This document shows positions 2,145-61,600 of a stretch of 64,000 nt of DNA, in pieces (position 1 is the first letter of the stretch; each line of letters opens with the position of its first letter). Both the position numbers and the translations under genes were made by a program. The notes beneath the pieces are model-generated. The model did not search any database and was not told the DNA's origin. It saw only the letters and a list, made by a program, of their open reading frames with translations. Source of the stretch: Patescibacteria group bacterium (GTDB taxonomy: Bacteria > Patescibacteriota > Gracilibacteria > UM-FILTER-43-11); the NCBI GenBank assembly GCA_018813295.1, contig JAHJBZ010000002.1, forward strand, positions 1,935 through 65,934, written 5' to 3'.

Positions 2145-2230
2145 ATTTTTGTTTTTATTTTTAACTTTAAGTTATTTTAGCACGATGGTAGGGTGGAAGC
2201 AATTTATCTCACATATATTAAATAATATAA

Positions 2231-6825: not shown

Positions 6826-6834
6826 GCTTATCGA

Positions 6835-6897
6835 TTTTTCATTTGAGATTTTTCATTTTACATTTAATTGAAAAATGAAAATTGAAAATTGAAAAAT
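6835..6897. repeat. AT-rich imperfect hairpin (TTTCATTT/AAATGAAA word family) at a convergent gene junction; possible bidirectional terminator
   Basis: tttttcatttgagatttttcattttacattt-aatt-gaaaaatgaaaattgaaaattgaaaaa. It is nearly identical to the element at 11051-11113. Confidence 0.55.
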
Positions 6898-8059: not shown

Positions 8060-8134
8060 ATTCAATTCAAAATTCAAGATTCAAAATTAGAAAATTATTT
8101 TTGAATTTTGAATCTTGAATTTTGATTCTTCTAA
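8060..8134. repeat. AT-rich hairpin (TTCAAAAT/ATTTTGAA word family) upstream of uvrA
   Basis: attcaattcaaaattcaagattcaaaattagaaaa / tttttgaattttgaatcttgaattttgattcttctaat. A related copy is at 25576-25638. Confidence 0.5.
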
Positions 8135-15051: not shown

Positions 15052-15168
15052 TGTCTGAACTGTGATTTATGTGATTAAATGATTTTTATGATTTACCATG
15101 CATAAGCTTTGTGCATTCATAAAAAATCTTGTCCATCATTACAATCATAAAAAATCATAGTTCAGACA
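15052..15168. repeat. TGTCTGAAC...GTTCAGACA long hairpin element, copy 1
   Basis: The terminal inverted repeat is tgtctgaactgtgatt...aatcatagttcagaca, and the arms are built from TGATT/AATCA words. Further copies are at 38651-38770 and 39521-39629, with a solo left arm at 37920-37962. Confidence 0.65.
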
Positions 15169-19389: not shown

Positions 19390-19433
19390 TCGAATTTTTA
19401 ATTTTTAATTTTTAATTTTTAATTTATTTATAA

Positions 19434-21513: not shown

Positions 21514-21585
21514 ATAAATAATGAATATCGAACGCTGAATGTTGAATAATGATTTATTAATTCGATGTTCGATATTGGATATTCG

Positions 21586-22275
21586 TTATTCGATATTCAA
21601 TAAATCATTAACCATTTCAAGTGTAACTTCGGTTAGATCGGGGAGAACAGTATCTGCGCCGGCACTTTTGAGTTCGTCGTGTCCTTCCAGGCCGGTAGTG
21701 ACTCCGACAACTTTCATTCCTGCGCCTTTGGCGGAAAGTACACCATTTGTTGAGTCCTCAAAAACAAGGGAGTTTTTGGGAGCGATTTTAAAAAACTTAG
21801 CTGTTATTTCGTAAATTTCAGGATTTGGTTTGGAATGTTTTACCCCATCTGTTCCTGTAATTTTTTTGAAATAATTTCCTATTCCTAACTGCTTTAACTC
21901 TTGTTCAACGACGTAATCTGCATTACTGGAAACGCAGGCAATATTTTCAAAATGTTCTGCTATCAATTCAACCGCTTCCTTCGCACCAGGCAGTAGCGGG
22001 AGATGGACTCCTAATTTTTCTTTTCTGTAATCTTCTAATGCTTTATCGATTTGTTCTTGTGTTATCCCCTTCTCTTCAATTTCGTCTTTCCAGAACATAT
22101 CAAACCGTTCTTTAGCGCTGATGGATAAGTTTTTAGGATCACTTTTAAATGGCTCTGCGTTTAAACCGAGATCTCTTTTAACAATATCGAAAAAAATACG
22201 ATTAGCAATTCGCATTGAACTTATCAATACCCCGTCCATGTCGAAGCAAATGAGGTGGGTTTTGTTTTTGTTCAT
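21586..22275 (-). CDS. HAD-superfamily hydrolase (beta-phosphoglucomutase-like subfamily)
   Basis: 229 aa with motif I FDMDGVLI, motif II SSN and motif III/IV K..FEDSTNGVLSAKGAG. Confidence 0.85.
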   Translation of the reverse strand: MNKNKTHLICFDMDGVLISSMRIANRIFFDIVKRDLGLNAEPFKSDPKNLSISAKERFDMFWKDEIEEKGITQEQIDKALEDYRKEKLGVHLPLLPGAKEAVELIAEHFENIACVSSNADYVVEQELKQLGIGNYFKKITGTDGVKHSKPNPEIYEITAKFFKIAPKNSLVFEDSTNGVLSAKGAGMKVVGVTTGLEGHDELKSAGADTVLPDLTEVTLEMVNDLLNIE

Positions 22276-25907: not shown

Positions 25908-26036
25908 GGATTAAGTCTTAAGTCATAAGCTAGTTTTTAAATTTAATCCTTGCTTAATTCTTACTCCTTAAAACTTAAAACTAAATATAAATCTTAAATC
26001 TAAAATCGCTAATCTCTAATCTTAAATCTTAAAAGT
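25908..26036. repeat. Composite intergenic element: TAAGACTT/AAGTCTTA word hairpin plus an AATCTTAAATCTAAAATCGCTAATC tract
   Basis: It aligns with 37964-38082 (agtcataag..taagctag..ttaatcctt..aaaacttaa.act.aatataaa.tct.aaatctaaaatcgctaatct). The tract recurs at 39661-39699. Confidence 0.6.
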
Positions 26037-29000
26037 ATGGCAGGAGGTCCACAACCATCTCAACACAGGGAGCGAGCAGGACAAGCACCAACCGGTGTGG
26101 AAACTTTTGAAGAACGAGGTGGTGATTATAGTTTTCAGGATTTTCAGGAGGCTGCTGAGCATGTTGAAAAAGATCCAAATGTAGAAGCTACTGAAAAAAT
26201 CAGAATGCTGAGAGGGAATATGAATCGTAATGAGCAATGGGAAGAAATTACCGCATTTACGCAAGCTGTTGTAAAAATTGTTGCTGAAGTACAAAGAAAT
26301 GATGGGAATGTTAAAAGAATTCGTAAAGATCCAACCATCTTAAGGCAGGAGGTTACCCAGGCAGGGGTCTCAGGCAATCTGATGCTTCCTGAGCTTGCAG
26401 CGCTTGATGAATTGCCTCGTATTTTTGGTGAAGTTGGTGATACCAGTAATTATATAAGGCGACTTTGGCCTGAAATAGTAGACGAAGGAGTGGAAGCTGG
26501 TACCGGACTGGTGGGCAGAAGTATAGATAGGGCAAAAAAGTTTATCAAAAAAAATCCTGTCGGTTCGATTTGCTTGCTTGCCGCCGGAGCAGCAGGTATA
26601 TACTTAAGTTTTAAGGCAATCACTACATATCTTAGTGTTAAGGATAAGGGTGTCGGGGAAACCTTTAAAGAGGCCAGAGAGAAGGGAAAAGAATCAAAGT
26701 GGTATGAAAATAAAGTTTTATGGGCTCTCTTGGTTGCAGTTTTAGGTGGAATTATTGGCCAAAAAGCACTCAAAAACCTACTAAAAGGGTTAAATTTAGA
26801 AGAACTTCAGGAATTACTTGATAGAGGTGAAGATATCCCCGAAGAAATGCAAAGGCAAATGGAAGAACAGGCTGCCAGGCTTGAAGAGTTGGAGAGAAAG
26901 GCAGAGGGAGTAGTAGGAGTAAGTGGTGCTATAGAAGGAGGCAGGGAAATGGTAACGGAAGGAATTGAAATAGTAAGTGAAGCTTCAAAATTTGAGGGTC
27001 AGTGTGAGGCACTTCTTGCAGTATATTGTTTTAATGAATATCGTTATGATCCACGACGTGACAAAAATAAGATTAAAAAGGTTTTTGAAGACCTAAGAGA
27101 AGAGCGTGTAATAGACATAATAGCATTGTGGGAAGATCATAAAACAGAAGATGAAGAAGGCACTATTCCAAGAAATACTGATTTGTATAATTTTGGTGGA
27201 GATATTGATCCAAAACATATTTATACAGCCTGCTGGATTATTAGCCAGACTTTTGATCAATATAAAAGACATCTTGGTGCTACCAATTATTCAAGTTTAA
27301 CATTGGATCAATTTTTCGGTGAGCATCTAGCTCAGGATCCAGTTTATAAAATTCATTCCTCAGTACAAACTACAATAACTGCCGCTCTTGAAGACGGGGA
27401 TCTTGAGGATATGAGCCTGGAGGGAATCGCAGCTTCAATTGAAGATGACAAAAATGAATTTTTGATGAAATTGGCAAAGGATTTGAATTTAACGGGTTAT
27501 AGTGATTTAAGCAGAGAACAAAAAATAGATTTTGGAAACATTGCTTTAAAGCTATATCGTGATGCAAATTTGGATGAAACTCCAGATAGAGCAATGCGAA
27601 ATATTGATAGAAGCCAGCATTTTGATGAATCGTTTGATCTGGCAAAAAGATTTTATGAAGCAGTTAGGGAAAACACCCTGAACCCCGAAACAGGTATTAT
27701 CTCAAGATGTGTCGATAGGTTTAATTTAGGACCTGATGTTGTTCCTAGATTAAGTAATGCCGATATTATAAAAAATGAATTAAGTGAAGAAATTGAATTT
27801 GGAAAAGCAGTTCAGCTGAACATCGTTGCCCAAAGAATTGATTTTAGTAAAAGCCCACAAGAAGGTAGTGATCCTATGACTGAACTTGCCTTGCTTTATG
27901 TGGTACTAAATAGCATTACGCCATCAGGCAAAAGGCGATATTTAAGTGAGCTTTCAAATTATGTATTGCAAAAACCTGTGAATATTAATTTGCCAAGTCT
28001 CGAGTTAATCAGACCATATTTAAAAACATTATTAGATTTTGGTATTGATGTCGGTGCAAATAAAATCAGGGCAGGAAAAGATTGGATTTCTGCTTATACT
28101 GCAGATCGAACACCTGAAGAGCAAGAGGCATTTTTACGCGAAATCCGAACTTCTAATATAATTGAATTTGGAGCTGAGACAGGAAAAGAAGCAGGGCTCG
28201 GAACAATTAGAATTGGTGCAGATGTTATGGAAACCATTTGGCAAAGCGGCAGGGTGGCCAAAGAGGATCTTCAAAGTGTTGAAACCACAGGTGATTTTCT
28301 TGCTTTGCTTTGGGCGGTAGGTGGCAGTTTAATTATTTCTAAAAATCCAGATGAACAGCATACAGGAGTGATTTATTTATTTGGAAAATATTTTTATGTT
28401 AAACCGCTTGGTATATTAAGAGATACATTAACGGCTTGGGCTGTAGGTGATGAAACAGGGAAAACCTCACCATCGGTATGTGGCGCAAAAGTATATCTTG
28501 CAACCACATCTCCTTTTGTTGTTATTGGTACAGCACATGGCTATTACCGCAATAGAATGATCGGAAGGACCGGTTGGAGGCTTATTGGTGGAGCGCTTGA
28601 GGGGACTGCTAGAGGACTCGCTGCACCTATTACTTTACCTGTAACAGGAACATCATGGATATATCGTGCTGGTAGGGCAGGTAAAGAAACTGTGCAGACT
28701 GGATTTAACTGGACATGGGATGCGGCTAAATACAAAGCTAGACCTGCTAGAAATATAAATATCATGATGCGTGATGCACAATTTGTTAAAAGGTATTTTC
28801 AAATAAGGCCAATAGAATCTACTGGGGTTTATGAAGAAATGCAGAGGGCATGGGCTCAAGGTCCCAGGGCAACTGCACAAAGACTTGCTATGCCATATTG
28901 GAATCAAAGAATGCTAGAAAAATATGCCATAAAATTTAATAGACGGTATAACAGTTATTTTGGGAAATATGTCAGTACGGATATTACCACTCTATCTAGG

Positions 29001-33960: not shown

Positions 33961-34024
33961 AATTTTAAATTTACAATTTTAAATTTTCAAACATTTGTAA
34001 ATTGTGAATTGTAAATTGAAAATT
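33961..34024. repeat. AT-rich hairpin (TTTACAATTT/AAATTGTAAA family) at the convergent rsmI/M23 junction
   Basis: aattttaaatttacaattttaaattttcaaaca / tttgtaaattgtgaattgtaaattgaaaatt. Related copies are at 53096-53170 and 57221-57300. Confidence 0.5.
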
Positions 34025-35618
34025 ATTGAAGTTCCTTCAAATATTCATCCGGAACATACTCAATTGGCATTTCCTCAAGCGGCAAGTAATCCAGTGGGTT
34101 TACCGGTTCGCCTTTGTAGTGGACCTCAAAATGCAAGTGCGGGCCGGTTGTCTGCAGACCAGCACCTTTTGTTCCAGGTGTACCGCCACTTAGACCGATC
34201 AATTCCCCTTCCTGAACAATGGTTCCCGGCTGGGCAATAATTTCTGCAACGTGGCCGTAAACGGTTACGAGGTTTCCTTTGTGGGCAAGAATGATGTAGC
34301 TGTATCCGCTGCCGTTATCCTTGGTCTGGAAAACATAACCGTTTGCCGGTGCGACAATGTTTGTAAATTGTTTGGCGCGAATATCTATTGCATTATGCTC
34401 TCCCCATTTTGCCGGGTAATCCGGGTCGTGGAAGTAGGCAGTAATTTTGTTGGCCGGAACAGGCCAGATAAATGGTTGTCTGTTTTCATCTGCATCTTCT
34501 GGTATCCGTACTACCTCTTCGATGGCCTCTTCTACATCTTCCAAATCTCCTTCGACTTCAGCTTCTTCCACCATCTCAAGACCTTCATCTAAAGTCGCTA
34601 ATTTACTTTCAATAAGATCGAGATTTTCCTGAAGGTTCTGGACGGCGATTGCAGTGGCGAGCTGTTCCTGGATGGCTTCATCGAGAAGTTCCTGGTATTT
34701 TTCCTCCTCCCCCTTGGTCTCTTCAAGCAGTTCCTTTTTGGAAAGACGGGTTTCCTCTAAGGTTCTTTTGTCTTTTAGGAGTTCATCGTATAAAAATTCC
34801 AATTCTCTTTGCTCATCTTCAATTGTGTCCTGTTTTTCGATAAGTTCCTGATGGGTGCGCTCTAAATCATAAAAAACCTGACGACCGGTTTCTTCCATCA
34901 CGGCAAGGTATTCCTGCCCCATTAAATTTTCACTAACACTCGCATCAGCAAGTAAAAGTTTTATAGTGCTTGATCCCTCTGAGTATAAATCAAAATATTG
35001 ATCTTCTTCTGCATAAAGTAATTTTACATAATCGAGGACGATTTTTTTCTGTATCTCAAGTTCGACTTCGCTTCTCTGTAAATTCAGCATCAGATCTTTA
35101 ATTTCTATTTGCTTCTCGGCGATTAATATTTCCACACTTGTAACTTTATCTTTTGTTGTTTGGATTTGTGTATTTATTAACCTGATTACATTTTCCAAAG
35201 TGGAAACCTCTTCGCGGATAGGAGACAGCTTATCTTGTGCTTCTTCAATTTGCGCTTCTAATTCTGTAAAACGTTCCATTTGGTCACTTAGATTCTCTTT
35301 TACAACTTCCAATCTTTTTTCCGTGTAGTCTTTTTTACTCCCCCAGCTTTCGATAATGGTTTGTCGATATTCCTCAAAAGGATCGAGTTCCTCGTCACCT
35401 TCCATAGACGCCCCGCTTAGCGGGGCTGTCTCTACAGGCTCCTCGATTGGGATTTCTTCATAATACTCCCCTTCTCCATCATAAAAACCCTGATCGGTAA
35501 TTTCCCAAAGATCTTCGGTATAATCAATAGTGCGATCAAGCTCTTCAATAATTGGTTCAATTGGAATTTCAACTTCAGGAATTTCCGGTTTACTAAAAGC
35601 GCTTTGAGTGACTGCCAT
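34023..35618 (-). CDS. Coiled-coil M23-family metallopeptidase (EnvC-like); true start probably upstream of 35618
   Basis: 531 aa with a long coiled coil and a C-terminal M23 domain (HNAIDI.., GHV.., GPHLHFEV). The in-frame upstream codons 35619-35711 encode a signal peptide, FKTKQRLVSILATIAIISAN, with no ATG/GTG/TTG. Confidence 0.85.
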   Translation of the reverse strand: MAVTQSAFSKPEIPEVEIPIEPIIEELDRTIDYTEDLWEITDQGFYDGEGEYYEEIPIEEPVETAPLSGASMEGDEELDPFEEYRQTIIESWGSKKDYTEKRLEVVKENLSDQMERFTELEAQIEEAQDKLSPIREEVSTLENVIRLINTQIQTTKDKVTSVEILIAEKQIEIKDLMLNLQRSEVELEIQKKIVLDYVKLLYAEEDQYFDLYSEGSSTIKLLLADASVSENLMGQEYLAVMEETGRQVFYDLERTHQELIEKQDTIEDEQRELEFLYDELLKDKRTLEETRLSKKELLEETKGEEEKYQELLDEAIQEQLATAIAVQNLQENLDLIESKLATLDEGLEMVEEAEVEGDLEDVEEAIEEVVRIPEDADENRQPFIWPVPANKITAYFHDPDYPAKWGEHNAIDIRAKQFTNIVAPANGYVFQTKDNGSGYSYIILAHKGNLVTVYGHVAEIIAQPGTIVQEGELIGLSGGTPGTKGAGLQTTGPHLHFEVHYKGEPVNPLDYLPLEEMPIEYVPDEYLKELQ

Positions 35619-35810
35619 ATTTGCGGAAATAATGGCAATTGTAGCCAGTATTGAGACAAGCCTCTGTTTTGTTTTAAATAAAGCCAGGGAAATAGAGTTA
35701 CAAATATCATATTATTATACCAAATTCTGGACTAAAAAACAAGGGTTTTTGGCTAAAGTATAAGGAAAACTTTATTGTGTACAAATATTGTTTTATGATA
35801 GAGTTGTATT

Positions 35811-36652: not shown

Positions 36653-37933
36653 ATGATCCAAATCAACCCTTCCAATATATTAAAGGATAAAATTGGTGCA
36701 ACTCATGGAATAAGTCAGCAAGCTCTAGACAACCTATGCACTAAATATCAACCTCTTACTCAAGAGGTTTTTCGGGCCAAGAATAAAGTTGGTTATGATT
36801 TTTTGAATTTGCCCGATGATAGTGAGCTTCTTCGTAAAATCAAAAAGTTTGTTACGAATCAAAATAGATATAAGTGGGAAAATATCGTGGTTTTGGGGAT
36901 TGGTGGGTCAGCTCTTGGCACAATTGCTGTTCGCAGTGCGCTTATTTCTAATTACAAAAGACCTAGGGTGTTTGTGGTTGATAATATTGATCCGCAGTCT
37001 ATTTCTGACTTACTTTCTTCCATTAATCTTTCCAAAACATTATTTTTGGTTATTTCAAAATCAGGAGGAACAACTGAACCGATGGCGCTTTATGGGCTAA
37101 TGAGGAGTGAGCTAGTCAAAAAGAAAATAAGGAATTTTAAAAAGCATTTTGTTTTTATTACCGATCCAAAAAAAGGACTTTTGAGGAAAATTGCAAAAAA
37201 GGACGGAATACAGACTTTTGATATTCCGTCTAAAATTGGTGGTCGTTTTTCAGTTCTTTCGAGTGCTTGTTTGGTACCTTTAGTCCTTGCTGGCGTGGAC
37301 GTAAATGGTCTTTTAAAAGGTGCGAGGGTGATGCGAGAGGTTATTAAAAGCACAAAGGGAACTGTGAATCCCGCATTGCTTTTGGCGGTTTCACAATTTG
37401 TTATGGATAGGAAAAAAGGCAAAACAATGACCGTTTTAATGCCATATAGTAATGCGCTATTTAGAGTTGGTGATTGGTATAGGCAATTACTTGCGGAGAG
37501 CATTGGGAAGAATGAAAAAACCGGACCAACTCCAATTAATGCATTGGGTACGACTGATCAGCATTCTCAACTTCAGCTTTATACAGATGGGCCGAATAAT
37601 AAATTAATCATTTTCTTACGAGTTTTGAAATTTAATGAAGATCCGGAAACTGGTGACCAGCTGCCAAAGGAACTTAGCTTTTTGAATAACAGAAAGATGA
37701 GTACGCTTTTGGATGCAGCATATTTTGGAACAGCAGGCTCTCTTACTCACAGCAAAAGGCCTAATCTGACTATTGAAGTTCCAAAGGTTGATGCAAAGAA
37801 TATTGGTGCATTATTTATGCTCTTTGAATTCCAAATAGCCTTACTTGGACTTCTTTATAAAGTTGATGCTTTTGATCAACCTGGAGTTGAACACAGCAAA
37901 CAAATTACTAAACAACTATTGTCTGAACTGTGA
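36653..37933 (+). CDS. pgi: Glucose-6-phosphate isomerase
   Basis: 426 aa with GIGGSALG, ISKSGGTTEP, GGRFSVLS and DQHSQLQLY. Confidence 0.9.
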   Translation: MIQINPSNILKDKIGATHGISQQALDNLCTKYQPLTQEVFRAKNKVGYDFLNLPDDSELLRKIKKFVTNQNRYKWENIVVLGIGGSALGTIAVRSALISNYKRPRVFVVDNIDPQSISDLLSSINLSKTLFLVISKSGGTTEPMALYGLMRSELVKKKIRNFKKHFVFITDPKKGLLRKIAKKDGIQTFDIPSKIGGRFSVLSSACLVPLVLAGVDVNGLLKGARVMREVIKSTKGTVNPALLLAVSQFVMDRKKGKTMTVLMPYSNALFRVGDWYRQLLAESIGKNEKTGPTPINALGTTDQHSQLQLYTDGPNNKLIIFLRVLKFNEDPETGDQLPKELSFLNNRKMSTLLDAAYFGTAGSLTHSKRPNLTIEVPKVDAKNIGALFMLFEFQIALLGLLYKVDAFDQPGVEHSKQITKQLLSEL

Positions 37934-38082
37934 TTTATCTGATTAAATGATTGATCATGATTCAAATTCTAAAGTCATAAGTTGTAAGCTGTAAGCTAGC
38001 TTAATCCTTAAGACTTAAAACTTAAGACTGAATATAAAATCTAAATCTTAAATCTAAAATCGCTAATCTTAAATCTAAAATC
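37920..38082. repeat. Solo left arm of the TGTCTGAAC element (overlapping the pgi stop) followed by a copy of the composite TAAGACTT / AATCTTAAATCTAAAATCGCTAATC element
   Basis: 37920-37962 (tgtctgaactgtgatttatctgattaaatgattgatcatgatt) nearly matches 15052-15094 but has no GTTCAGACA partner. 37964-38082 aligns with 25908-26036. Confidence 0.55.
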
Positions 38083-38649
38083 AAGGGGGGTTTTACATTA
38101 TCGGAGTTAATAATAGTCATCTCTATTATAGGGGTTATTACGGCTATTGCCTCAAATACATACCGTAATCAACGCGTTCAGGTTGAATTTACCGATTCTC
38201 TGACAACAGTTGTGAGTATGATTAAGACAGCGCGCAACTATGCTGTTACAAGTAGAATGGCTTATGACGGTGGCGAGCTTTCTGTACCACCGGAAGGCTA
38301 TGGAATTTATATAAATTCCAACACCGGGGAATTTATTTTATTTGCAAATGTTGGGTCTGATCCTAATGCTTATGATGGGAGCAATGATGATGTTATTGAA
38401 GAGGAATACACTCTGCCAAATAACACGGTATTTGAAGATATGTTATCGGATAGTTGTGATGGAAGCTCTGGGGTTGATGAGGTGGTAATAATTTTCCGTC
38501 CACCTCTTGCTGATGCCTCAATTATAGATGGTGTTGGCGACACAATGAATACTCTTTACATGCGTCTTTCCCGCGCTGGCAGCCCTGCTGGTGTTTATAA
38601 ATGTATTCATATGAATCGCACAGCTGGATTCCCGGAGATCGATCTTTAA
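38080..38649 (+). CDS. FimT/GspH-like minor (pseudo)pilin; start codon unresolved (ATC 38080 proposed)
   Basis: The frame is open from 38038 and reads ..KSKIKGGFTLSELIIVISIIGVITAIA.. followed by TVVSMIKTARNYAVTS, which is GspH/FimT-like. The first canonical start (GTG 38212) would delete the pilin helix. Confidence 0.65.
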   Translation: MKGGFTLSELIIVISIIGVITAIASNTYRNQRVQVEFTDSLTTVVSMIKTARNYAVTSRMAYDGGELSVPPEGYGIYINSNTGEFILFANVGSDPNAYDGSNDDVIEEEYTLPNNTVFEDMLSDSCDGSSGVDEVVIIFRPPLADASIIDGVGDTMNTLYMRLSRAGSPAGVYKCIHMNRTAGFPEIDL

Positions 38650-38650
38650 T

Positions 38651-38770
38651 TGTCTGAACCGCAGATTACGCAGATTAAATGATTTCACAGAATTTGATTG
38701 CGCAGATTGTAATCAGTGAAATCAAAGTCAGCGTAATCCGAAAAATCAGTGTAAATCAGCGGTTCAGACA
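38651..38770. repeat. TGTCTGAAC...GTTCAGACA long hairpin element, copy 2 (between pilin genes)
   Basis: tgtctgaaccgcagattacgcagatt...aatcagtgtaaatcagcggttcagaca, followed by an A-rich tract. Confidence 0.65.
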
Positions 38771-38844
38771 AAAAAAATAAAAAATAAACAAAAAAATTCC
38801 TAATTCTTAATCTTCAATTTTCAATCCTTAATCCTTTTAAGCAC

Positions 38845-39519
38845 ATCAAAGGAGAAACAATAGCCGAGACAATTATTGCTCTTACGATTCTGGCTGTTGG
38901 TATTACGCTAAGCAGTACTATGATGGCCAATTCTCTGCGCAATGTGAATGTTTCTAAGAATAGGGTGATTGCTGTTAACATCGCCCGCGAAGGAATTGAG
39001 GCAGTGCGTAATATTCGTGATACAAACTGGCTTAAGTTTAGTGGTAATAGGAGGATATGCTGGAATAGTTTGCCGGATGAAGACATTAATGAACCTTGTG
39101 ACGGAACCGATTTAATTGATTACGAAGCTGATGGTTATATCGTTTACAAAGCCAGTGATCATCGCTGGCGCTTGCAGGATGTAACTGCAGCTGATGAAAC
39201 TGCCCTTTCTACCGTAGATATTGATTTAACAGTGAACACAGATGGTGACAATGATCCTAATGGAGATGAAAATGATTCAGATATGTATAACCATACTGAT
39301 CCTGCCGATGCATTAGGAAGAGACTATGCACAAAATACTAACTTTTATCGTGTTATTACCATCGAGTATTTGGATGAAGATGGAAATTATACCAATAACC
39401 CTTATGATAACCGCATCGAGGTAAGCTCCACCGTTACCTGGATAAAAGGCAGTGCTGAACACAGCGTGGAACTTAAAACCCATTTAACCGATTATCTTGG
39501 AAGGGATAATTTGGATTAA
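38845..39519 (+). CDS. PilV-like minor pilin; start codon unresolved (ATC 38845 proposed)
   Basis: The frame is open from 38788 and reads ..HIKGETIAETIIALTILAVGITLSSTMMANSL..NIAREGIEAVRNIRDTNW. The first ATG (38920) lies after the hydrophobic helix. Confidence 0.6.
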   Translation: MKGETIAETIIALTILAVGITLSSTMMANSLRNVNVSKNRVIAVNIAREGIEAVRNIRDTNWLKFSGNRRICWNSLPDEDINEPCDGTDLIDYEADGYIVYKASDHRWRLQDVTAADETALSTVDIDLTVNTDGDNDPNGDENDSDMYNHTDPADALGRDYAQNTNFYRVITIEYLDEDGNYTNNPYDNRIEVSSTVTWIKGSAEHSVELKTHLTDYLGRDNLD

Positions 39520-39520
39520 C

Positions 39521-39629
39521 TGTCTGAACCGTGATTTATAGGATTAAAAGATGGCCATGATTATAAATAGATAAACACATTATAAATAATCAAGTAATCA
39601 AGCTAATCAGGTAAATCATGGTTCAGACA
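39521..39629. repeat. TGTCTGAAC...GTTCAGACA long hairpin element, copy 3 (between pilin genes)
   Basis: tgtctgaaccgtgatttataggatt...aatcaggtaaatcatggttcagaca. Confidence 0.65.
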
Positions 39630-39696
39630 AAAAATAAAAAACAAAAAAAGTTAATAACTTAATCTTAAATCGCTAATCGCTAATCTTAAATCTAAA

Positions 39697-42600
39697 ATCA
39701 AAGGAGGTTTTACCTTGGCGGAATTAGTAATTTCAGTAACTATACTAGCCCTGATAATAACAACCGCATCTGCTGTTTATGTAAACTTTTTCGGTTCTGT
39801 CAGGAATTTGAAGGCAGCGAATTTGGTTTATGAGGAAGCGCGTTTTGTAATGGAACGGATTGTAAAGGAGGTTAGGAATGGGACAATAGATTATGAGGAA
39901 TATTACAATCAAAGCGTAATCAAGCAAGGCTATAGGGATCAAGGTCTACCAGAAGATTATTATGAAGCCGCTAGGAATCCTTCTTATGCACTCGATTATT
40001 GTAAGTATAGTTTACAATTTTATAGTGAGGGACCCGACGGGGAAATTGGTACATTTGATGATGAAAGTTTAGGCGTTCGTAATACAGTGGACGTAGATGG
40101 TGATTATTTGCCTCCTGCTATTGGGTATGTAGAACCTGATGGAGACATTGTTTCCAGCCCAATTCAAAATGATTTGTTTTTAATAAACATTAATGGAGAT
40201 CGTCGTAGTTATGTTAGACGGATTGAAAGGGAAGGCATTGGTAAAATTGGCTTACTTAAGCTCGTAGGGCATGATTTTGGTGTAGATAATATTAATGCTT
40301 CTGATCCTGATCTTGATCCTGCTACTGCGGACTCTTGTGAAACTGACCCTGGCGAAAATGATGGACGTATTGATACCTGGTTATGTGAAGATGGTTTTAC
40401 TTGCTTAGATAGAGCCATTACAAATGCGGATGCCTCTTGTACCGGTATAACACACGATATAATTTATAACCCAGGAGACCCTACGGAAAATAGTTATATA
40501 GATATCACGCCTGCATCACTTGATATTGTGGATGTTAAATTTATTGTTTCTCCAATGGATGATCCACGTAAAGCGTATAGCAATAACAGTGTTCAAATTC
40601 AACCACATGTGACTATAAAGCTTATCGCCCGTGCCAGCCCGAGTATCGCTAATCAATTTACAACTGGTAATACGCCGGATATTGTACTTGAATCCACTGT
40701 TTCTGCCCGGGCATATAATGAGATAATTACTGAATGTAATTTAAAGCAATGCAGTGAGTTTAGCCCACCGGAACCTTGTCTGTTAACTCTGGGTGTTTGT
40801 GGACCTACAGACCCAGCTAATGATCCAGCACTTCAAACTTGTGAAAATTTTGTATGGTCAGGATGTACTGAAGAAACATATCAAGATTACGCCTTAAGTG
40901 AGTGGGGTAATGCGGATTTTTATCAGCATACTACTGAATATGCCTCTTGTGACCCAACTGATCCGCCAGAAACTTATGATGCCTGCAGGCAAAGCTATTG
41001 TGAAGATGATCATGATAATGATTGTGATGGATTTACGGATGAGGAAGATGTGGATTGCCAATCTATACTTTGCGATAACGGAATATATGATGGAGTTGAT
41101 GTAGAAGAGGTAGATAATTGTATCGATGTAGGTGGTGTTTGCTGGCAATTCCATCCATATGAAGAAGGCGAGGAGACCTTATGTTTTGATGAACATGATA
41201 ACGACTGTGACGGAAATGCAGATGAATTTGATCCTGACTGTATCGCCAATGTTATTTGTCAAAACGGTGTACAGGATAGTAATTTTATAAATTTCTTTGA
41301 TTACACTGGACCTTCTACTGGCTATCTTGTTGGTTATACAACTTTTGATGATGATCTTAATGAAGAGGCGGAAGATGTTGGCGGAATCTGTGAGACATAT
41401 GCTGATTTAACTGTAGACGCCCTTATGGGTGATGGCTATGCGGAGGGAATTATTACCGGTTATGATCCGGATAACCCACCTGCCACTGGGGAAAGGCTTG
41501 TACCAGATGCTACATTCGCTGATCATGAAACAGGCAGTTTATGTTATGACGGATTGGATAATGACGGAGATGGTTTTGCGGATGAGTTGGATGGTGCTGA
41601 TACTCCTAGCGACTTAACGGATGATGATTGTTTAGAAGTTATTTGTAACAATGCAGTTCAGGATTGTGATTTGGTTCGTCCAGATTACAGCCCAGCCAAC
41701 TATTTGGTTGGTTTCATTGATACGGATAGTCCGCCATGCTCGGGACTATTTAATGACGAATACTGCACCGATGTGGGTGGAGTTTGTGATGGTCTTCGTG
41801 ATGTTGTTGACCTGAAATATGTTGACCATACAAAAATCAGCAATGAGAACAATCCTCATTCTTATACACCGCCAACACCTGCAAGCAATACCTGTACGGA
41901 TGAATTGGATAATGACTGTGATGGTGATATTGACTGGGAGGATGGCGATTGTTGTATTGACGGAGATAATGATAGTTATGTTGGCGATAGCGAGACATGT
42001 GAGCCTCCTGAACTAACTATAATAGACTGTAATGACAGCGATGCTGCTATTCATCCCGGTGCAACCGAAATATGTGACGGCGTAGCAGATGAAGATTGTG
42101 ATGGGTATGCGGATGAGGATGACTTTGACTGCTGTGATGATGGGGATGGGGATAATTTTGGTACGGTTGATGCATATTTAAATTGTATTGGTGGTTATCC
42201 AAATCCACCTGAGCCGGATTGTGATGATGCGGATGTAAATATATATCCAGGAGCGCCAGAGAACACCGAGGCACTTTGTGATAATCAAATTGATGCAAAT
42301 ACGCCAATAAATGACAACTGCCACACTGAAGTAATTGATGATCCTGGTAATCCTGGAAATGACCTAACGGTTGAAAGGGCGAATCATATTGATTGGTACA
42401 AAGCGACAGTTGGAATTGCTACCGCTTTTGAATATAAATACTTTGAACCAGCTTGTTGTGATCTTTATTCAGTTGAAATTTGTAATGATGCTGGCGATAG
42501 TGATGAGAATTGTGATGGTTTGGAGGGCTATGACGATCATCAGTGTGTAACGGAGGATGGATCTGCATTCCGGGATAACTTTACAAGCAATTCGTTTATA

Positions 42601-42981
42601 GGTGCGACTGAATTTGGTGCAACACAAATTGTAGGCAGTGGTGTTATTACACTTGAACTACCGACTGATGTTGGCATGGTTACAAGTGATAACATAAATC
42701 CTCTCGATCCATCTACATGTGGTGCTAGTGATTTTAGAGTTTCCATTTCAAAATCTGACAGTACTCCTGGCAGTAGCACAATTAAATATCAATTAAGTAA
42801 TGATGGTACAACCTGGTATGGAGATGCTGGGCAGGGAGATTGGATTGAAGCTGGTGATCTGCTTGAATATACATTTACCACATCTGACTACGATATTTAC
42901 TGGCGTGCAGAACTTGAAGGCGATGGCTCCTCTTCTCCATCTATTACTTATGTTAATTTGACTTATAACTGCGTTCCATAA
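39697..42981 (+). CDS. Giant PilW-like minor pilin with Cys/Asp-rich DNDCDG metal-binding-type repeats; start codon unresolved (ATC 39697 or TTG 39715)
   Basis: In-frame ..KSKIKGGFTLAELVISVTILALIITTASAVYVNFFGS..EEARFVMERIVKEVRNGT is PilW-like. About seven repeats of the C..(D/E)..DNDCDG..DE.D.DC / DC.D.D..I.PGA.E type lie between roughly 40990 and 42545. Confidence 0.7.
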   Translation: MKGGFTLAELVISVTILALIITTASAVYVNFFGSVRNLKAANLVYEEARFVMERIVKEVRNGTIDYEEYYNQSVIKQGYRDQGLPEDYYEAARNPSYALDYCKYSLQFYSEGPDGEIGTFDDESLGVRNTVDVDGDYLPPAIGYVEPDGDIVSSPIQNDLFLININGDRRSYVRRIEREGIGKIGLLKLVGHDFGVDNINASDPDLDPATADSCETDPGENDGRIDTWLCEDGFTCLDRAITNADASCTGITHDIIYNPGDPTENSYIDITPASLDIVDVKFIVSPMDDPRKAYSNNSVQIQPHVTIKLIARASPSIANQFTTGNTPDIVLESTVSARAYNEIITECNLKQCSEFSPPEPCLLTLGVCGPTDPANDPALQTCENFVWSGCTEETYQDYALSEWGNADFYQHTTEYASCDPTDPPETYDACRQSYCEDDHDNDCDGFTDEEDVDCQSILCDNGIYDGVDVEEVDNCIDVGGVCWQFHPYEEGEETLCFDEHDNDCDGNADEFDPDCIANVICQNGVQDSNFINFFDYTGPSTGYLVGYTTFDDDLNEEAEDVGGICETYADLTVDALMGDGYAEGIITGYDPDNPPATGERLVPDATFADHETGSLCYDGLDNDGDGFADELDGADTPSDLTDDDCLEVICNNAVQDCDLVRPDYSPANYLVGFIDTDSPPCSGLFNDEYCTDVGGVCDGLRDVVDLKYVDHTKISNENNPHSYTPPTPASNTCTDELDNDCDGDIDWEDGDCCIDGDNDSYVGDSETCEPPELTIIDCNDSDAAIHPGATEICDGVADEDCDGYADEDDFDCCDDGDGDNFGTVDAYLNCIGGYPNPPEPDCDDADVNIYPGAPENTEALCDNQIDANTPINDNCHTEVIDDPGNPGNDLTVERANHIDWYKATVGIATAFEYKYFEPACCDLYSVEICNDAGDSDENCDGLEGYDDHQCVTEDGSAFRDNFTSNSFIGATEFGATQIVGSGVITLELPTDVGMVTSDNINPLDPSTCGASDFRVSISKSDSTPGSSTIKYQLSNDGTTWYGDAGQGDWIEAGDLLEYTFTTSDYDIYWRAELEGDGSSSPSITYVNLTYNCVP

Positions 42982-43101: not shown

Positions 43102-44253
43102 ATGATAAATATAATTAAAAACAATAGGGGTGTTTCACTTCCACTGGTTATAGGTCTGGTGATGCTGCTGATGATTGCTTCAGTTGGGGTGAATGAATTG
43201 ATTTTAAGAACACTTCGTTCCGCTCATCAAATTGAAGCGGCGGATCGGGCATATTTTGCTGCTGAGGCGGGTATTGAAGATGCTCTTTATGAACTCACCC
43301 CTCATTTTGCAGGATATGAAACGCCTGATTTGGATAGCGCTGACGTGAGAAGTAATAATTTTGGCGGAAGTGTTCAGTGGGATAACAATTGGGCAATTGA
43401 AAGTATAAGCGATAGTGACACATTTGATGGTTATTTTTATTCAAAGCAAAAATTAATCATTAGTTTGTATAACGATGAAGCGGGTGACACAGTAAAAGCC
43501 GCGAATTTTATTAATACAGACCCAGCAGATATTAGCACTCTTGGCGTAGGTTCATTTTTAATGACTTTCCGCGTTCCTTATGACCAGGAAGATCAATATT
43601 CTACGCCCTTTTTAAACAACGGCCTTGTTATTGATAATGATAGCGATGGACGAATTAATGAGGATGGGCCTGAGAACAATGGTTCCTGCCCGGGGGTCGT
43701 CGGCACTTCCAGGGATGCGGATTGTGACAGAAGGGAAGATGAGGATAGTAATCAGGATCCTGTAATTTACTGGAAGATTATAGATGATGAAGGGCGGTAT
43801 TTAGAGCCTAAAACGGGTTGTTTTACCGGCGTAGGAACTCCTGAGGATCCGCAGGGCAGCGAAATGTGCGAAAAGGACTTTATAAATACCGGCACTGATA
43901 TATACATAGAATTAAATGATTCGGATTTAGGGGTAAATCAAGACGGAGATGAGGTGTCGATTGGAACATTTATAACCAATGGTTATGACAATAGATCTAC
44001 GAAAAGTAAACTTCAGATTGAATTCCAAATCGTCGCTCCTCTGGAGCAGGCATATGAGGATAATGGAGTTAAGGAAATAATCATTCCTTACCTTGAATAC
44101 ACGGTAGAAACCGGAAGTGATTATGTTCCGCTTCCTAGATTTACCATTAAATCAGATGGTTATTACAAGGATTTTAAACAATCAATAACCACAACGATTA
44201 CGCCGAAGACGATTGCGCCGTTGTTTGACTTTACGATTATTCAGCAGCAATAA
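43102..44253 (+). CDS. PilX-like minor pilin with an Asp-rich calcium-binding-like insert
   Basis: 383 aa. NRGVSLPLVIGLVMLLMIASVGV..ADRAYFAAEAGIEDALYEL is a PilX N-terminal pattern. An internal DNDSDGRINEDG..DADCDRREDEDSNQD segment is present. Confidence 0.65.
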   Translation: MINIIKNNRGVSLPLVIGLVMLLMIASVGVNELILRTLRSAHQIEAADRAYFAAEAGIEDALYELTPHFAGYETPDLDSADVRSNNFGGSVQWDNNWAIESISDSDTFDGYFYSKQKLIISLYNDEAGDTVKAANFINTDPADISTLGVGSFLMTFRVPYDQEDQYSTPFLNNGLVIDNDSDGRINEDGPENNGSCPGVVGTSRDADCDRREDEDSNQDPVIYWKIIDDEGRYLEPKTGCFTGVGTPEDPQGSEMCEKDFINTGTDIYIELNDSDLGVNQDGDEVSIGTFITNGYDNRSTKSKLQIEFQIVAPLEQAYEDNGVKEIIIPYLEYTVETGSDYVPLPRFTIKSDGYYKDFKQSITTTITPKTIAPLFDFTIIQQQ

Positions 44254-47513: not shown

Positions 47514-48584
47514 AAATTCTAATCCAAAGTGCAATTTTTGATGAAGACTTCGTGGGGGGTCAGATAGCCTAATCGTTTTCGTGGTCTGTGGTTAATTAAA
47601 TTTACCACTTTTTCCAGTTTTTCCTGAGTAACTTCAGAAAATGAACTCTTTTTTGGAAAAAACTGCCTTAATAATCCGTTGGTATTCTCATTTGTTCCAC
47701 GCTCCCATGAATGGTAAGGGTATGCATGGTAAACATCCATTTCTGTTTCACGTTCAATTAATTCATACTCTCCAAATTCCGAACCGTTATCATAAGTAAT
47801 CGTGAATTTTTTCTTTTTGGGTAAACTTTTAAATTGTCTGACAGTTGTTTTTCGGGTAATTTCAGCCAATCCTCTTTCCAGTTTGTCTGCCAGTAAATAA
47901 CCGCTCATTCGATCTACATGAGTCAGTATTCTTTCCTTACGGTTTAATCCGACAATGGTATCTCCTTCAAAATCTCCGAGACGTCCTCGTTTTTCAACAA
48001 TGTCAGGTCTTGTATCTATACGTTTCTTTTTGCCTTCTTCACGAGCTTTTTCCAGTTTTTTAGTTCCATATCTTTTTCTGTATTTACCCTTTTGACATTT
48101 CATATATCTTTTAAGATCCTCTCTTTGTTTGTAGATAAATTGGTAAATAGTTTCATGACAAAGAATAGTTTTGCCATATCTAAGCCTTAGCCTGCCTGCT
48201 ATCTGTTCAGGCGACCAGTATTTCCTTAGCTTTCGTTCAATGTAGCGTTTAAGCTTTTTGTTGGCTCTTAGCTTTCTGAATCTTTTATTTGCATTCAGAC
48301 GTTTTGCCTTAACATTACGTTTGGCTAAAAAACAATTATATCTGCCTTCATTTGTACTATTTCTTTTTATTTCTCTCGAAATAGACGAAGGATGTTTGTC
48401 TAAAATCTCAGCGATTTCAGACTGTTTGTGGCCAGCCCGGAGTAATACGGCTAGCTCAACCCGCTCGTCGGGTTTAATATGTGTGTAGGACATCATATGT
48501 GGTGGGGTTAAGGTGTAAGTTTGCTTACTACTATCTTACCTCACCCTTTGATGTCTTCATTTGTTGCACTTCGGTCTAGAATTC
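47514..48584 (-). mobile_element. IS30-family insertion sequence (~1.07 kb)
   Basis: It contains a single transposase ORF. The imperfect terminal inverted repeats are aaattctaatccaaagtgcaa (47514-) and the reverse complement of ttgcacttcggtctagaattc (-48584). One repeat overlaps the transposase stop, as is usual for IS30. Confidence 0.8.
47519..48496 (-). CDS. IS30-family transposase
   Basis: 325 aa with an N-terminal HTH (ERVELAVLLRAGHKQSEIAEILDKHPSSISREIKRN) and a DDE/rve core (GDFEGDT.., TYDNGSEF.., WERGTNENTNGLLRQ). Confidence 0.9.
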   Translation of the reverse strand: MMSYTHIKPDERVELAVLLRAGHKQSEIAEILDKHPSSISREIKRNSTNEGRYNCFLAKRNVKAKRLNANKRFRKLRANKKLKRYIERKLRKYWSPEQIAGRLRLRYGKTILCHETIYQFIYKQREDLKRYMKCQKGKYRKRYGTKKLEKAREEGKKKRIDTRPDIVEKRGRLGDFEGDTIVGLNRKERILTHVDRMSGYLLADKLERGLAEITRKTTVRQFKSLPKKKKFTITYDNGSEFGEYELIERETEMDVYHAYPYHSWERGTNENTNGLLRQFFPKKSSFSEVTQEKLEKVVNLINHRPRKRLGYLTPHEVFIKNCTLD

Positions 48585-53095: not shown

Positions 53096-53170
53096 TTTAC
53101 AATTTTAAATTTTAAATTTTCAAACATTGAAATTTGTTTGTAAATTGTAAATTGTAAATTTAAAATTTTT
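53096..53170. repeat. AT-rich hairpin (TTTACAATTT/AAATTGTAAA family) between rfbB and glmS
   Basis: tttacaattttaaattttaaattttcaaaca..tttgtttgtaaattgtaaattgtaaatttaaaatt. Confidence 0.5.
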
Positions 53171-57220: not shown

Positions 57221-57300
57221 AATTTACAATTCACAATTTACAATTTACAAATAAACTTCAAAACCTTTTAAAATTTAAAATTGTAAATTTAAAATTAAAA
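57221..57300. repeat. AT-rich hairpin (TTTACAATTT/AAATTGTAAA family)
   Basis: aatttacaattcacaatttacaatttacaaa...aaaatttaaaattgtaaatttaaaatt. Confidence 0.5.
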
Positions 57301-57304
57301 TAAA

Positions 57305-58623: not shown

Positions 58624-61600
58624 ATGTTAACCGAAGAAAATTTCAATCAGCCATATGCACTTATCTCGAAAGGGGATAATATTCATTTTTACAGCGGAAA
58701 ATTCTTTCGTTTCGATAAATTAGACGATCTTGAGAAGTTTTATAACGAAAGCGACTCTCCTCTAATTTTTATAACTCCATTTTCCGTCGCAAAAGAGAAG
58801 GGATTCAAGGTGGTTGGCGACGAAAAAATACTCATATTACAGGCTGAGCTTAATCAAAAAATAACAGTTGAGTATCTTGATCAATTTATTTCAGACAAAT
58901 CGATTGAGTTAGATGGGGAAATATCTCCTTCCAAGTCAAATGAAGATTTTGCAAATGAGGTCAAACGGATCCAAAGTGAGGAAATTGCCGAAGGAAATGC
59001 TTGTCAGGTGGTTTTGTCTCGTAAATTTCAGGGCAGGATCGACGATATGACTCCAGGGGATCCACTTGTACTGTTTAGACGTTTGCTTTTACAAAAGGGG
59101 CAGTATATGACCTTTTTATTTTCGGACGGGCAAGGGCATTTCTTTGTTGGTGCTTCACCTGAGAGGCAATTGGAGATAAGGGGTGGCAATGTAGTAAAGA
59201 ACCCAATTGCAGGCACCATGCCTAAAGGTGAAAGGGGTGGGTTTAAGGAGAGATTGATAGAGTTTTTAAATGATCCAAAAGAGACTAATGAGTTATCACA
59301 AGTGTTAGATGAAGAACTAAAAATGATGGCTCAAATTTGCCCTGAGGGTGGGAAGATATTTGGACCATATTTACGTGAAACCGGAGCTGTTATACACAGC
59401 GAATATCATTTGGTAGGCCGCAGCAGCAAGCCTCCAATTCAGGCGCTAAAGGAATCTTTTCATGCTCCTACTTTGGTAGGCAGCCCACTTGAGAGTGCTT
59501 TTAGAATTATCGCAAAACGAGAACAGGAATCGCGACGTTATTATGGAGGTGAATTTGGGATAATGGAGCCAAATGGTGATATTGATAGCGCAATTATGAT
59601 CCGCACTGCTGAGATTGATAAGGATGGCAGTTTTGTCATTCAGGCTGGTGCTGGTATTGTGCGTGATTCACTTCCTGAGAAAGAGGCAAATGAAACACGC
59701 ATAAAAGCGGCCGGTATGATTAGTGCTTTAATGGGCGATCAGCGCTTTTCTAAATCTTATTTAGACGATATAGATAAAAAAGCTATTGAGCCAATTCTTA
59801 AAAAACGAAATCAGCGTTTTTCTCGTTTTCATTTCGAAGATCAGTTTGATTTTGTGGAAGAAGGCAAATTAAAAGGATTGAACATTACAATTGTAAATAA
59901 TGAGGATAATTTTGCGCATATGTTGGGACATATAGTTCGTCATATGGGATGCATCTACAAGGTTATTGATACTTTTGATTATTCACCTCAAGATGACACT
60001 AGTGATGTGGTGATTCTTGGACCTGGACCAGGAAATATTAATGATGAAGCGGATCCTCGCATGCAAAAATTATTGACAATCACCAGACAGCTATTGGACG
60101 AAAGTAGGCCTGTGCTAGGGATTTGTCTTGGTAACCAGGCACTTGGCAAGAGCTTGGGGATGATTGTAGAAAAGCAAAAGATCTCCACTCAAGGTGTTCA
60201 AATTCCAATTAATTATTTTGGGAAAAAGGAAAAAGTCGGTTTTTATAATTCGTTTATTCCTCGCTACAAAAAAACTGAACAGCAGATTGAAACTAGCTTG
60301 AACGAGGAAGAGCAAGTCGTTGCTATGAAAGGTAAAGGTATGGCTGGTTTGCAATTTCATCCTGAATCCGCGATGAGCCAGAATGGATATGGAATTCTGA
60401 AGGATGCGCTCTTTTTTCTCGCCCCAAAAAAATCCCTTCCCAAAGATCAAATTAAACAATTTGTTAAGCAGAGCGTTTCAGGAGCGATGACGCTTGATGA
60501 ACAAAAAGAGTTTCTGGTTGATTTGAATGAAAAAGGCTATACCGGAACTGATATTGCTAATTTTATAAAAGCTTTATACAAAGAAATGTCGAAGGAGGTT
60601 TGCGCAAAAGATGCAATTGATATTTGCGGTACCGGAGGGTCTAATCTTCCAAGAATTAACACTTCGACCTTGGCTGCTTTTGTTTGTGCTACTTGTGGGA
60701 TCTCAATTGCTAAACATGGAAACCGAGCTGCCAGTGGTAGGTTTGGTAGTTTTGATTTATTGGAAGCTTTGGGGGTTAACATTGAGGCAAATCACAAGCG
60801 ATTAGAACTGCTTTATAAAAATACGAATTTGGCATTTATTTTCGCACAAAAATTCCATCCCGTTATGAAGCATTTTGCCAAAGCTCGAAAAGAGATAGGG
60901 CAGAAAACGATCTTTAATCTTCTCGGACCACTTCTTAATCCTGCAAATCCAGGTAGGCAGATTATTGGTGTATCGAGTGTCGATGATATGGAGCTTATTA
61001 TCGAAGCAGCAAAGGGGCTTGGCAAAAAACATGTGATGGTCGTTTGTGGATCTGACGGGCTTGATGAGGTTACGATTACCGGACCCACTGATGTGATGGA
61101 GTTAAAAAACGGGGAAATTGCCAAATACACCATTAGGCCTGAGGATTTTGGAGTCAAATCTACAGCTTTTGACTCAATTGCAGGGGGCACTCCTGAGATA
61201 AATACGGAATTAGCAAAAGAAATTTTAGCCGGAACTTGTAAATCTAAACATTTGGATTTGATTTTAGTAAACGTTGCACTAATTTTGAAGTTTGACGGAA
61301 AGGTAAAAGATCTAAAATCCGGCATAAAAATGGCAAGAGAAGTTATAGAAAATGGATCTGTTCAGGCTGTTTTTGAGAAGTATAAGGAGATGAGCTGCAG
61401 CCCTAGCTTCTTACAAAAAGTCGTAAATTCAAAAATGGAGGAAGTTGCAAAATTAAAAAAACAATACCCTCTTGAGCAAATAAAAAAAGACCTCAAACCA
61501 TCTGATCGGGATTTTAAGTCTGCCCTCAGAGGAAAAGATAAATTAAGCCTGATTGCCGAAATTAAACTATCTTCCCCTAGCTTGCCGGACTTATATAAAG

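Follow-up and report, generated by a model that had tools for sequence, protein, structure and literature searches.

Near-cognate AUC codons as probable starts of three adjacent minor pilin genes in a Patescibacteria group bacterium

We have analysed a 64-kb stretch of DNA (64,000 nt, hereafter the window; positions 1,935 to 65,934 of contig JAHJBZ010000002.1, GenBank assembly GCA_018813295.1) from an uncultivated Patescibacteria group bacterium of Peregrinibacteria type, in which three consecutive genes encode minor pilin-like proteins with signal peptides located upstream of any ATG, GTG or TTG codon. From codons, motifs and alignments with relatives we infer that these genes are initiated at near-cognate codons, a reading that is strongly supported. 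It is probable that the three minor pilins at the front of the cluster begin at AUC, apparently at the distal of two in-frame ATC codons in each gene, with leaders that would be cut after a glycine. An earlier note on this DNA had singled out ATC as a possible initiation site; we likewise find an ATC (Ile) codon to be the most likely initiation codon, but favor the one located further upstream. These genes make up the front part of a conserved minor-pilin cluster of Peregrinibacteria. Its gene order (M23 peptidase, ruvA, pgi, pilin 1, pilin 2, giant pilin 3) is kept in metagenome-assembled genomes labelled Peregrinibacteria, Peribacteria, Gracilibacteria or Patescibacteria, as well as in metagenome contigs. 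Loci of relatives and metagenome contigs are labelled L0xx below and homologous proteins P0xxx; pilin positions are counted from the cleavage site (↓).

Upon re-reading the upstream stops, the open reading frame (ORF) list and the translations, the earlier description holds: in all three genes, the prepilin motif is in frame with the protein and upstream of the first canonical start. Gene 1 (38059-38649, plus strand; 196 residues if begun at the distal ATC) encodes a GspH/FimT-like minor pilin. Downstream of a TAA at 38035, its frame opens at 38038 and encodes NLNLKSKIANLKSKIKGG↓FTLSELIIV; GTG 38212 is the first canonical start. The leader would be (M)ANLKSKIKGG, with predicted cleavage before Phe (38092). 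Scores of 23.7 bits with PF07963 (N_methyl; cut-off 21.2 bits) and 27.0 bits with TIGR02532 (cut-off 16.3 bits) both exceed the cut-offs and the GspH match is weak; the gene 1 family profile matches solved pilins at their N-terminal helices only. Gene 2 (38824-39519, plus strand; 231 residues if begun at the distal ATC) encodes a PilV-like minor pilin, and its frame, open from 38788 (TAA at 38785), reads ...FSILNPFKHIKG↓ETIAETIIA. GenBank calls it from its first canonical start, ATG 38920, as a hypothetical protein of 199 residues; from the distal ATC, the leader would be (M)LNPFKHIKG and the mature N-terminus ETIAETIIA. Gene 2 matches neither PF07963 nor TIGR02532, and its matches to PilV (E = 4.8e-4) and ComGE are weak and below the cut-offs. 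The +1 residue deviates (Glu, not Phe) while Gly -1 and Glu +5 are kept, and G↓E[TS]xxE is common to all 109 homologues in the gene 2 set, which comprises the homologues with the G↓E-T-x-x-E motif from a database search. An AlphaFold2 model of gene 2 (mean predicted confidence, pLDDT, of 89.5) consists of coil (residues 1-10), a helix (residues 11-71) and a β-sheet, and Foldseek retrieved no PDB structure with E < 0.2 for it; the 'lollipop' fold of pilins, in which a long N-terminal α-helix packs on an antiparallel β-sheet, is thus only suggested by the model. Gene 3 (39676-42981, plus strand; 1101 residues if begun at the distal ATC) encodes a giant pilin-like protein with Cys-rich MopE-type repeats and the same predicted leader as gene 1, (M)ANLKSKIKGG. 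Its frame, which opens at 39658 after a TAA at 39655, encodes LNLKSLIANLKSKIKGG↓FTLAELVIS. A canonical start first occurs at TTG 39715, from which GenBank calls a protein of 1088 residues. Gene 3 scores above the cut-off with TIGR02532 (17.6 bits) and below it with PF07963 (17.8 bits).

The codons of the signal peptides appear to be translated, as the earlier note maintained. Profile matches start at Gly-Phe, and genes 1 and 3 both encode KIKGG↓FTL[S/A]EL ahead of a hydrophobic helix, with synonymous changes between them in K-G-G-F-T-L-x-E (aag/aaa, ggg/gga, aca/acc, tta/ttg, gag/gaa). This divergence had been described as exclusively synonymous, which does not extend to the x codon (tcg/gcg). 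The upstream frames do lack a canonical start, but their reported length of 15–19 codons needs revision, with 14, 19 and 13 open codons before the proximal ATC of genes 1, 2 and 3, or 18, 22 and 17 up to the cleavage-site Gly. Since no ATG, GTG or TTG is available to the translated signal peptides, translation would begin at a near-cognate AUC. For gene 1, this is also the public annotation: NCBI protein P0001 is exactly this coding sequence, called from ATC 38059 (MANLKSKIKGGFTL..., 196 residues).

Several other explanations were considered and rejected. One relative, 74% identical to the window and represented by three independent assemblies (L019, L020 and L021), shares these ATC codons and likewise lacks an ATG; thus, the arrangement is not an assembly artefact, and the missed ATG that the earlier note had allowed for was not found. 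A frameshift from an out-of-frame ATG was rejected, as none is present within ∼120 nt upstream of gene 1 and orthologues of the M23 peptidase align in frame. An alternative genetic code was likewise dismissed, since pgi has its stop at TGA after 426 residues, compared to 425-429 residues in orthologues, and ATC is an ordinary Ile codon.

It is also very improbable that the downstream GTG 38212, ATG 38920 and TTG 39715 are the real starts of decaying or repurposed genes, with the motif as a relic. Gene callers pick these codons for genes 2 and 3, as they pick such codons for many homologues, and 22 of the 67 retrieved gene 1 homologues are called from within the pilin helix. However, frames, hydrophobic helices and motifs are intact across relatives of 45-74% identity, the ORFs are long and intact (1091 codons for gene 3), and the gene 1 pattern recurs in at least six genomes. 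The orthologue alignment that the earlier note had suggested as a check showed the segment that codes for the helix to be free of stops and frameshifts in close relatives. Truncated database calls are by themselves no proof of non-canonical starts, since L010 has an ATG at -9, yet its GenBank entry begins at an internal Met.

A survey of 75 distinct 5′ ends, covering all pilin genes of the related loci, places these genes in a broader pattern. Fourteen of them lack any ATG, GTG or TTG in the interval from the upstream stop to the cleavage-site Gly, and all 14 have ATC, ATT, ATA or CTG at -9 to -16. Of the remaining 61, 29 have their nearest canonical start at -9 or -10, the commonest location. 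Different codons can occupy the same start position, as in 'aag GTG aag' of L012-14 versus 'aag CTG aaa' of L039. Thus, judging from these alignments, exchanges between canonical and near-cognate codons at a given start position have occurred repeatedly in this neighbourhood.

Each of the three genes contains two in-frame ATC codons. The proximal codons (38080-38082, 38845-38847 and 39697-39699) belong to the ATC-AAR-GG motif at 38080, 38845 and 39697, whose positions are as the earlier note gave them and which it favored as the start. The distal codons are located exactly 21 nt upstream, at 38059 (38059-38061, the first near-cognate codon past the upstream TAA of gene 1), 38824 (38824-38826) and 39676. 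This spacing follows from the periodicity of tandem heptamer arrays (3 × 7 = 21 nt): 6.7 copies of AAATCTT on the plus strand at 38037-38082 encode the gene 1 leader, a similar array at 39660-39699 encodes that of gene 3, and another is located at 38801-38836 in gene 2. The mature protein is identical for either ATC, and initiation at the distal ATC would result in basic leaders of 10-11 residues.

Comparisons with homologues distinguish the two codons best in gene 2, where the distal ATC is very probably the start. It aligns with the ATG of homologues, whose leaders have 9 or 10 residues in 83 of 109 cases and fewer than 9 in none. The leader consensus is M-x-x-F-F-K-N-I-[KR]-G, and the window leader (M)LNPFKHIKG can be compared with MNPFRNIKG (P0095) and MNLFKNIKG (P0076). 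Position -3 is most often occupied by Ile (33 of 109); together with the lack of leaders shorter than 9 residues, this identifies the proximal ATC of gene 2 as an internal codon for a conserved leader Ile. In L019, changes past the distal ATC of gene 2 are mostly at third positions (ttt/ttc, aag/aaa, gga/ggc), and the two codons ahead of it are unrelated to those of the window.

The distal ATC is the probable start in genes 1 and 3 as well, with somewhat less confidence than in gene 2. Gene 1 has ATC or ATT exactly at -11 in the window, L019, L007, L009/L004, L037 and L023, so that at least six genomes share this near-cognate arrangement. Its leader length is fixed at 11 despite changes in its sequence (ANLKSK, TNLKSK, SNLKSK, KIHKSQ and KKDRFK); in L009, L037 and L023, an in-frame stop lies only 2 codons upstream of the -11 codon, and the L023 gene reads ATT-AAA-AAA (MKK...). 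Homologues that start with ATG and end their leaders in K-I-K-G, namely P0034 (MIKKILKIKG) and P0056 (MRYKKNKIKG), have 10-residue leaders that begin 6-7 residues ahead of the Ile of K-I-K-G. The modal gene 1 leader has 10 residues, compared with the window ATC at -11. For gene 3, L007 has ATT at -11 without a canonical start. The distal ATC is the most likely initiation codon of gene 1, and the proximal ATC most likely encodes the leader Ile at -4 (K-I-K-G-G), with a role as a secondary start being possible.

Initiation at the proximal ATC codons, with MKG(G) leaders of 3-4 residues, is unlikely by comparison. In its favor, all three genes carry ATC-AAR-GG, as do L007, L009, L019, L023 and L037, AAR is a favoured second codon, and gene 1 homologues with 5-residue leaders exist (MIKKG and MNKKA). 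Against it, apart from the lengths of gene 2 leaders, none of the 44 gene 1 homologues compared for leader length has a 4-residue leader, K-I-K-G forms the end of 10-residue ATG-started leaders, and the candidate ATC of L011 gene 1 is at -6, not -4.

Several observations weigh against the distal assignment or its interpretation. Gene 3 of L028 has an ATG at -4, the sole precedent for a 4-residue leader in this family. A sigma-70 promoter scan of 37900-39760 returned 9 promoter-like sites, compared to 7.8 expected, and no terminators. As the scan did not place the transcription start, the mRNA might not include the distal ATC; transcription starting within the array would leave only the proximal ATC there. 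The array module TATAAATCTTAAATCTAAAATCGCTAATCT of pilin genes 1 and 3 is also found ahead of an unrelated ATG-started gene at 26037, so conservation of the distal ATC in these two genes could be at the DNA level. Non-coding upstream DNA is also well conserved among close relatives; as a consequence, the argument from synonymous changes at -11 to -5 rests on few sites. The rationale of expression tuning, discussed below, is extrapolated from E. coli data.

The earlier note had also raised a competing possibility, in which AAGGAGG serves as a Shine-Dalgarno (SD) sequence for starts at TTA 38098, ATA 38860 and TTG 39715; the stretches in question are AAGGAGG, AAGGGGGG and AAAGGAG. The products would begin with M-[S/A]-E and have no cleavable leader. 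The spacing of 5-7 nt is SD-like, TTG 39715 is canonical and used by GenBank, and gene 1 of L007 has an ATG at +3. However, none of the 30 clearly ATG-started genes of the window has GGAG, GAGG or AGGA at -22 to -4. G accounts for 8% of the bases in this A/T-rich interval, and AGGAGG occurs 33 times in the window, all but a few inside coding sequence. There is no rRNA in the window, and one Peregrinibacteria genome, that of Candidatus Peribacter riflensis, appears in a published survey among SD-scarce organisms that lack CCUCC (PMC10783764). TTA is no known start codon, and initiation at these sites would lose the protein-conserved Gly-Phe-Thr and shift Glu from +5 to +3. The +3 codon itself (TTA, ATA or TTG) encodes the variable Leu/Ile/Met of F-T-L-x-E, which varies freely and has many forms in ATG-started orthologues. 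Thus, AARGGNGG is the appearance of Lys-Gly-Gly codons, not an SD site, and SD-led initiation is scarcely credible here. SD-independent initiation has been described for Bacteroidota and some Candidate Phyla Radiation (CPR) members (PMC10783764); the A/T-rich, G-poor upstream regions are shared with the window, whereas that literature deals with how AUG is selected in the absence of SD pairing and reports neither frequent near-cognate starts nor a use specific to pilins.

A fourth gene of the neighbourhood, the M23 peptidase (34023-35687, minus strand; 554 residues), likely starts at CTG 35687-35685, and the first ATG (35618) comes only after its signal peptide, ALFKTKQRLVSILATIAIISANMAVTQSAFS↓KPE. 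The window sequence reads 'tcc CTG gct tta ttt aaa aca aaa cag agg', and orthologues in L004, L007, L023 and L029 have TTG-GCT at this site. Orthologues have 555-561 residues; the public gene call for the window is truncated to 531 residues. There is an out-of-frame ATG nearby at 35710, and the orthologues align in frame from CTG-GCT. A search of the window for further genes shortened in this way, using upstream open frames and Pfam N-terminal coverage, added only the M23 peptidase; other window genes have an intact N-terminus when read from ATG. ATG is the start codon of all 18 pgi and all 17 ruvA genes in the loci surveyed for pilins (Fisher p = 0.0044 versus the pilins), which indicates that the effect is gene-specific.

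These data bear on whether the start codon matters at all. Initiation could be independent of the codon, either by reinitiation or 70S scanning or through relaxed proofreading (initiation factor IF3, initiator tRNA) that makes AUH and CUG efficient. Gene 1 of relatives begins shortly after the pgi stop, with its ATC or ATT at a distance of 1 nt in L011, 7 nt in L007, 11 nt in L004 and 20 nt in L023, and gene 2 of L019 follows gene 1 by 20 nt; moreover, 4 of ∼40 window genes is far above the E. coli rate. In the window, however, the spacers between these genes are 125-300 nt long and contain hairpin elements, making coupling impossible here, and the consistent use of ATG by pgi and ruvA (35 of 35) and the full-length starts of the other window genes argue against a genome-wide relaxation. 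We therefore regard codon-independent initiation as improbable. Termination-reinitiation may help in relatives with gaps of 1-20 nt, but it is no whole explanation in the window, since inserted hairpins separate the genes.

In the mechanism that we favor, initiation at the distal near-cognate codon, the initiator tRNA would read AUC with a third-position mismatch, and the resulting basic leader of 10-11 residues would be cut after Gly by a prepilin peptidase. Weak starts could keep low-stoichiometry pilus-priming proteins, and the CTG-started M23 peptidase, scarce, while housekeeping neighbours use ATG. Minor pilins function in low copy number, where the fibre begins or at its tip (FimU-PilVWX, GspHIJK). 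A single C-to-G change would convert ATC to ATG, but gene 1 keeps ATC or ATT across genomes with ∼45-50% protein identity; thus, a weak start appears to be tolerated or selected. In E. coli, AUA, AUC, AUU and CUG initiate at 1-2% of AUG, with an N-terminal Met (bioRxiv 10.1101/063800). The closest parallels are infC and pcnB of E. coli (AUU) and near-cognate initiation in general (AUA, AUC, AUU and CUG, translation table 11), in which, as here, a start codon with a third-position mismatch, or a first-position one for CUG, is the sole possible start of a conserved gene and low expression is expected. In contrast to these, the codon here is mainly AUC, three adjacent genes and a neighbour are involved, the feature lasts to ∼45-50% identity, initiation is not SD-led, and no IF3 autoregulation is known. 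To our knowledge, only two non-canonical starts have been confirmed genome-wide in E. coli. In the literature searched, neither Patescibacteria nor pilin genes are reported to have non-canonical starts.

The heptamer arrays are part of a wider feature of this DNA. A/T-rich 7-nt units in 3-11 tandem copies are present in almost every intergenic region of the window (for example, 6834-6895, 8064-8130, 19393-19425, 21560-21602, 25967-26033, 38037-38082, 53096-53169 and 57221-57301), and the units vary by locus (ATTTTAC, AATTCAA, AATTTTT, ATTCGAT, CTTAAAT, AAATCTT and TTTAAAT, among others). The gene at 26037 encodes a protein of 1768 residues without a Pfam match, and the sequence ATC-GCT-AAT-CTC-TAA there would form just a 4-codon out-of-frame mini-ORF (25967-26060). 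Some leaders of orthologous pilins (NSPNSLNSLNSPKSLN, SRVTSHESRVT) look like translated arrays. In L032 (2450-2510 and 4140-4195) and L018 (2230-2320), an array abuts an ...N-K-K-G↓F site, with the nearest ATG 29-41 codons upstream; these genes have either very long repeat-encoded leaders or further non-canonical starts. Possible functions of the array include a promoter role or an SD-independent landing site for ribosomes. We found no literature report on heptamer arrays.

The palindromic hairpin between genes 1 and 2 (GTCTGAACCG...CGGTTCAGAC, 38652-38769) has further copies of ∼110 nt each at 39522-39628 (between genes 2 and 3) and 15053-15167, and a partial one from 37921. Its RNA fold has a free energy of -49.8 kcal/mol (z = -10). 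L019 lacks the copy between genes 1 and 2, so the element behaves like an inserted palindrome of the miniature inverted-repeat transposable element (MITE) or repetitive extragenic palindromic (REP) type. As an A-run follows them, the hairpins are not plus-strand intrinsic terminators. The sole structured RNA found in the window by an Rfam scan is tRNA-His.

The cluster continues with gene 4 (43102-44253, plus strand), a putative PilX-like gene with an ordinary ATG start (MINIIKNNRG↓VSLPLVIGLV...) and no family match in the profile search. The order of GspH/FimT-, PilV-, giant and PilX-like genes resembles that of fimU-pilVWXY1E of P. aeruginosa and GspH-I-J-K, and Gly -1 and Glu +5 are shared with these. 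Known minor-pilin clusters differ in having canonical starts; in addition, gene 2 has Glu at +1 and no PDB neighbour, gene 3 has ∼1100 residues with MopE repeats, and single-family memberships here fall below curated cut-offs. Type IV pilin-like proteins in general are cleaved and N-methylated by a prepilin peptidase (PilD) and assembled by a type IV pilus machine; pilD, pilB and pilC are all absent from the 64-kb window. Another large pilin-like ORF (1-2147, minus strand, >715 codons) runs off the left end of the window; it has an ordinary ATG at 2147 and the leader MKILNKKA↓FTLVELLIVVVIIG, in a region with a GC content of 0.47, compared to ∼0.38 elsewhere. An insertion sequence (IS)-type transposase (HTH_38 and rve; 47519-48496, minus strand) is located downstream of the pilin cluster. 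Elsewhere in the window, a single ORF (58624-62775, plus strand, 1383 residues) fuses chorismate-binding (TrpE), GATase (TrpG), TrpD, IGPS (TrpC) and PRAI (TrpF) domains; as a fusion of the tryptophan pathway, it is unusually complete for a CPR-type genome.

Near-cognate starts as such are already known, and one is already used by NCBI for gene 1. What is notable here is the presence of four near-cognate genes in 64 kb, their conservation and the consequence for the annotation of CPR surface proteins; no new mechanism is needed. Near-cognate starts are assigned to ∼10% of the window genes and to ∼19% of the pilin-cluster genes across relatives. A more speculative proposal, to which we give a rather low likelihood, is that AUC, AUU, AUA and CUG starts are a regular, selected feature of expression in Peregrinibacteria-type CPR bacteria, not a rare accident; SD-independent initiation together with altered proofreading (IF3, initiator tRNA or 16S P-site) could enable it, and it could serve to set or regulate the dosage of surface and pilus-tip proteins. 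Standard gene callers would then systematically remove the N-termini of exported proteins in such genomes.

For ultrasmall CPR bacteria, type IV pili are considered central to host attachment and DNA uptake. If near-cognate initiation is correct, current annotation strips signal peptides from such proteins, leaving gene 2 as a hypothetical protein and gene 3 without its cleavage site, and surveys would undercount or misclassify pilus components. The cluster would also be a natural, conserved test case for near-cognate initiation without SD pairing, and its weak starts may set the stoichiometry of the pilus-priming complex.

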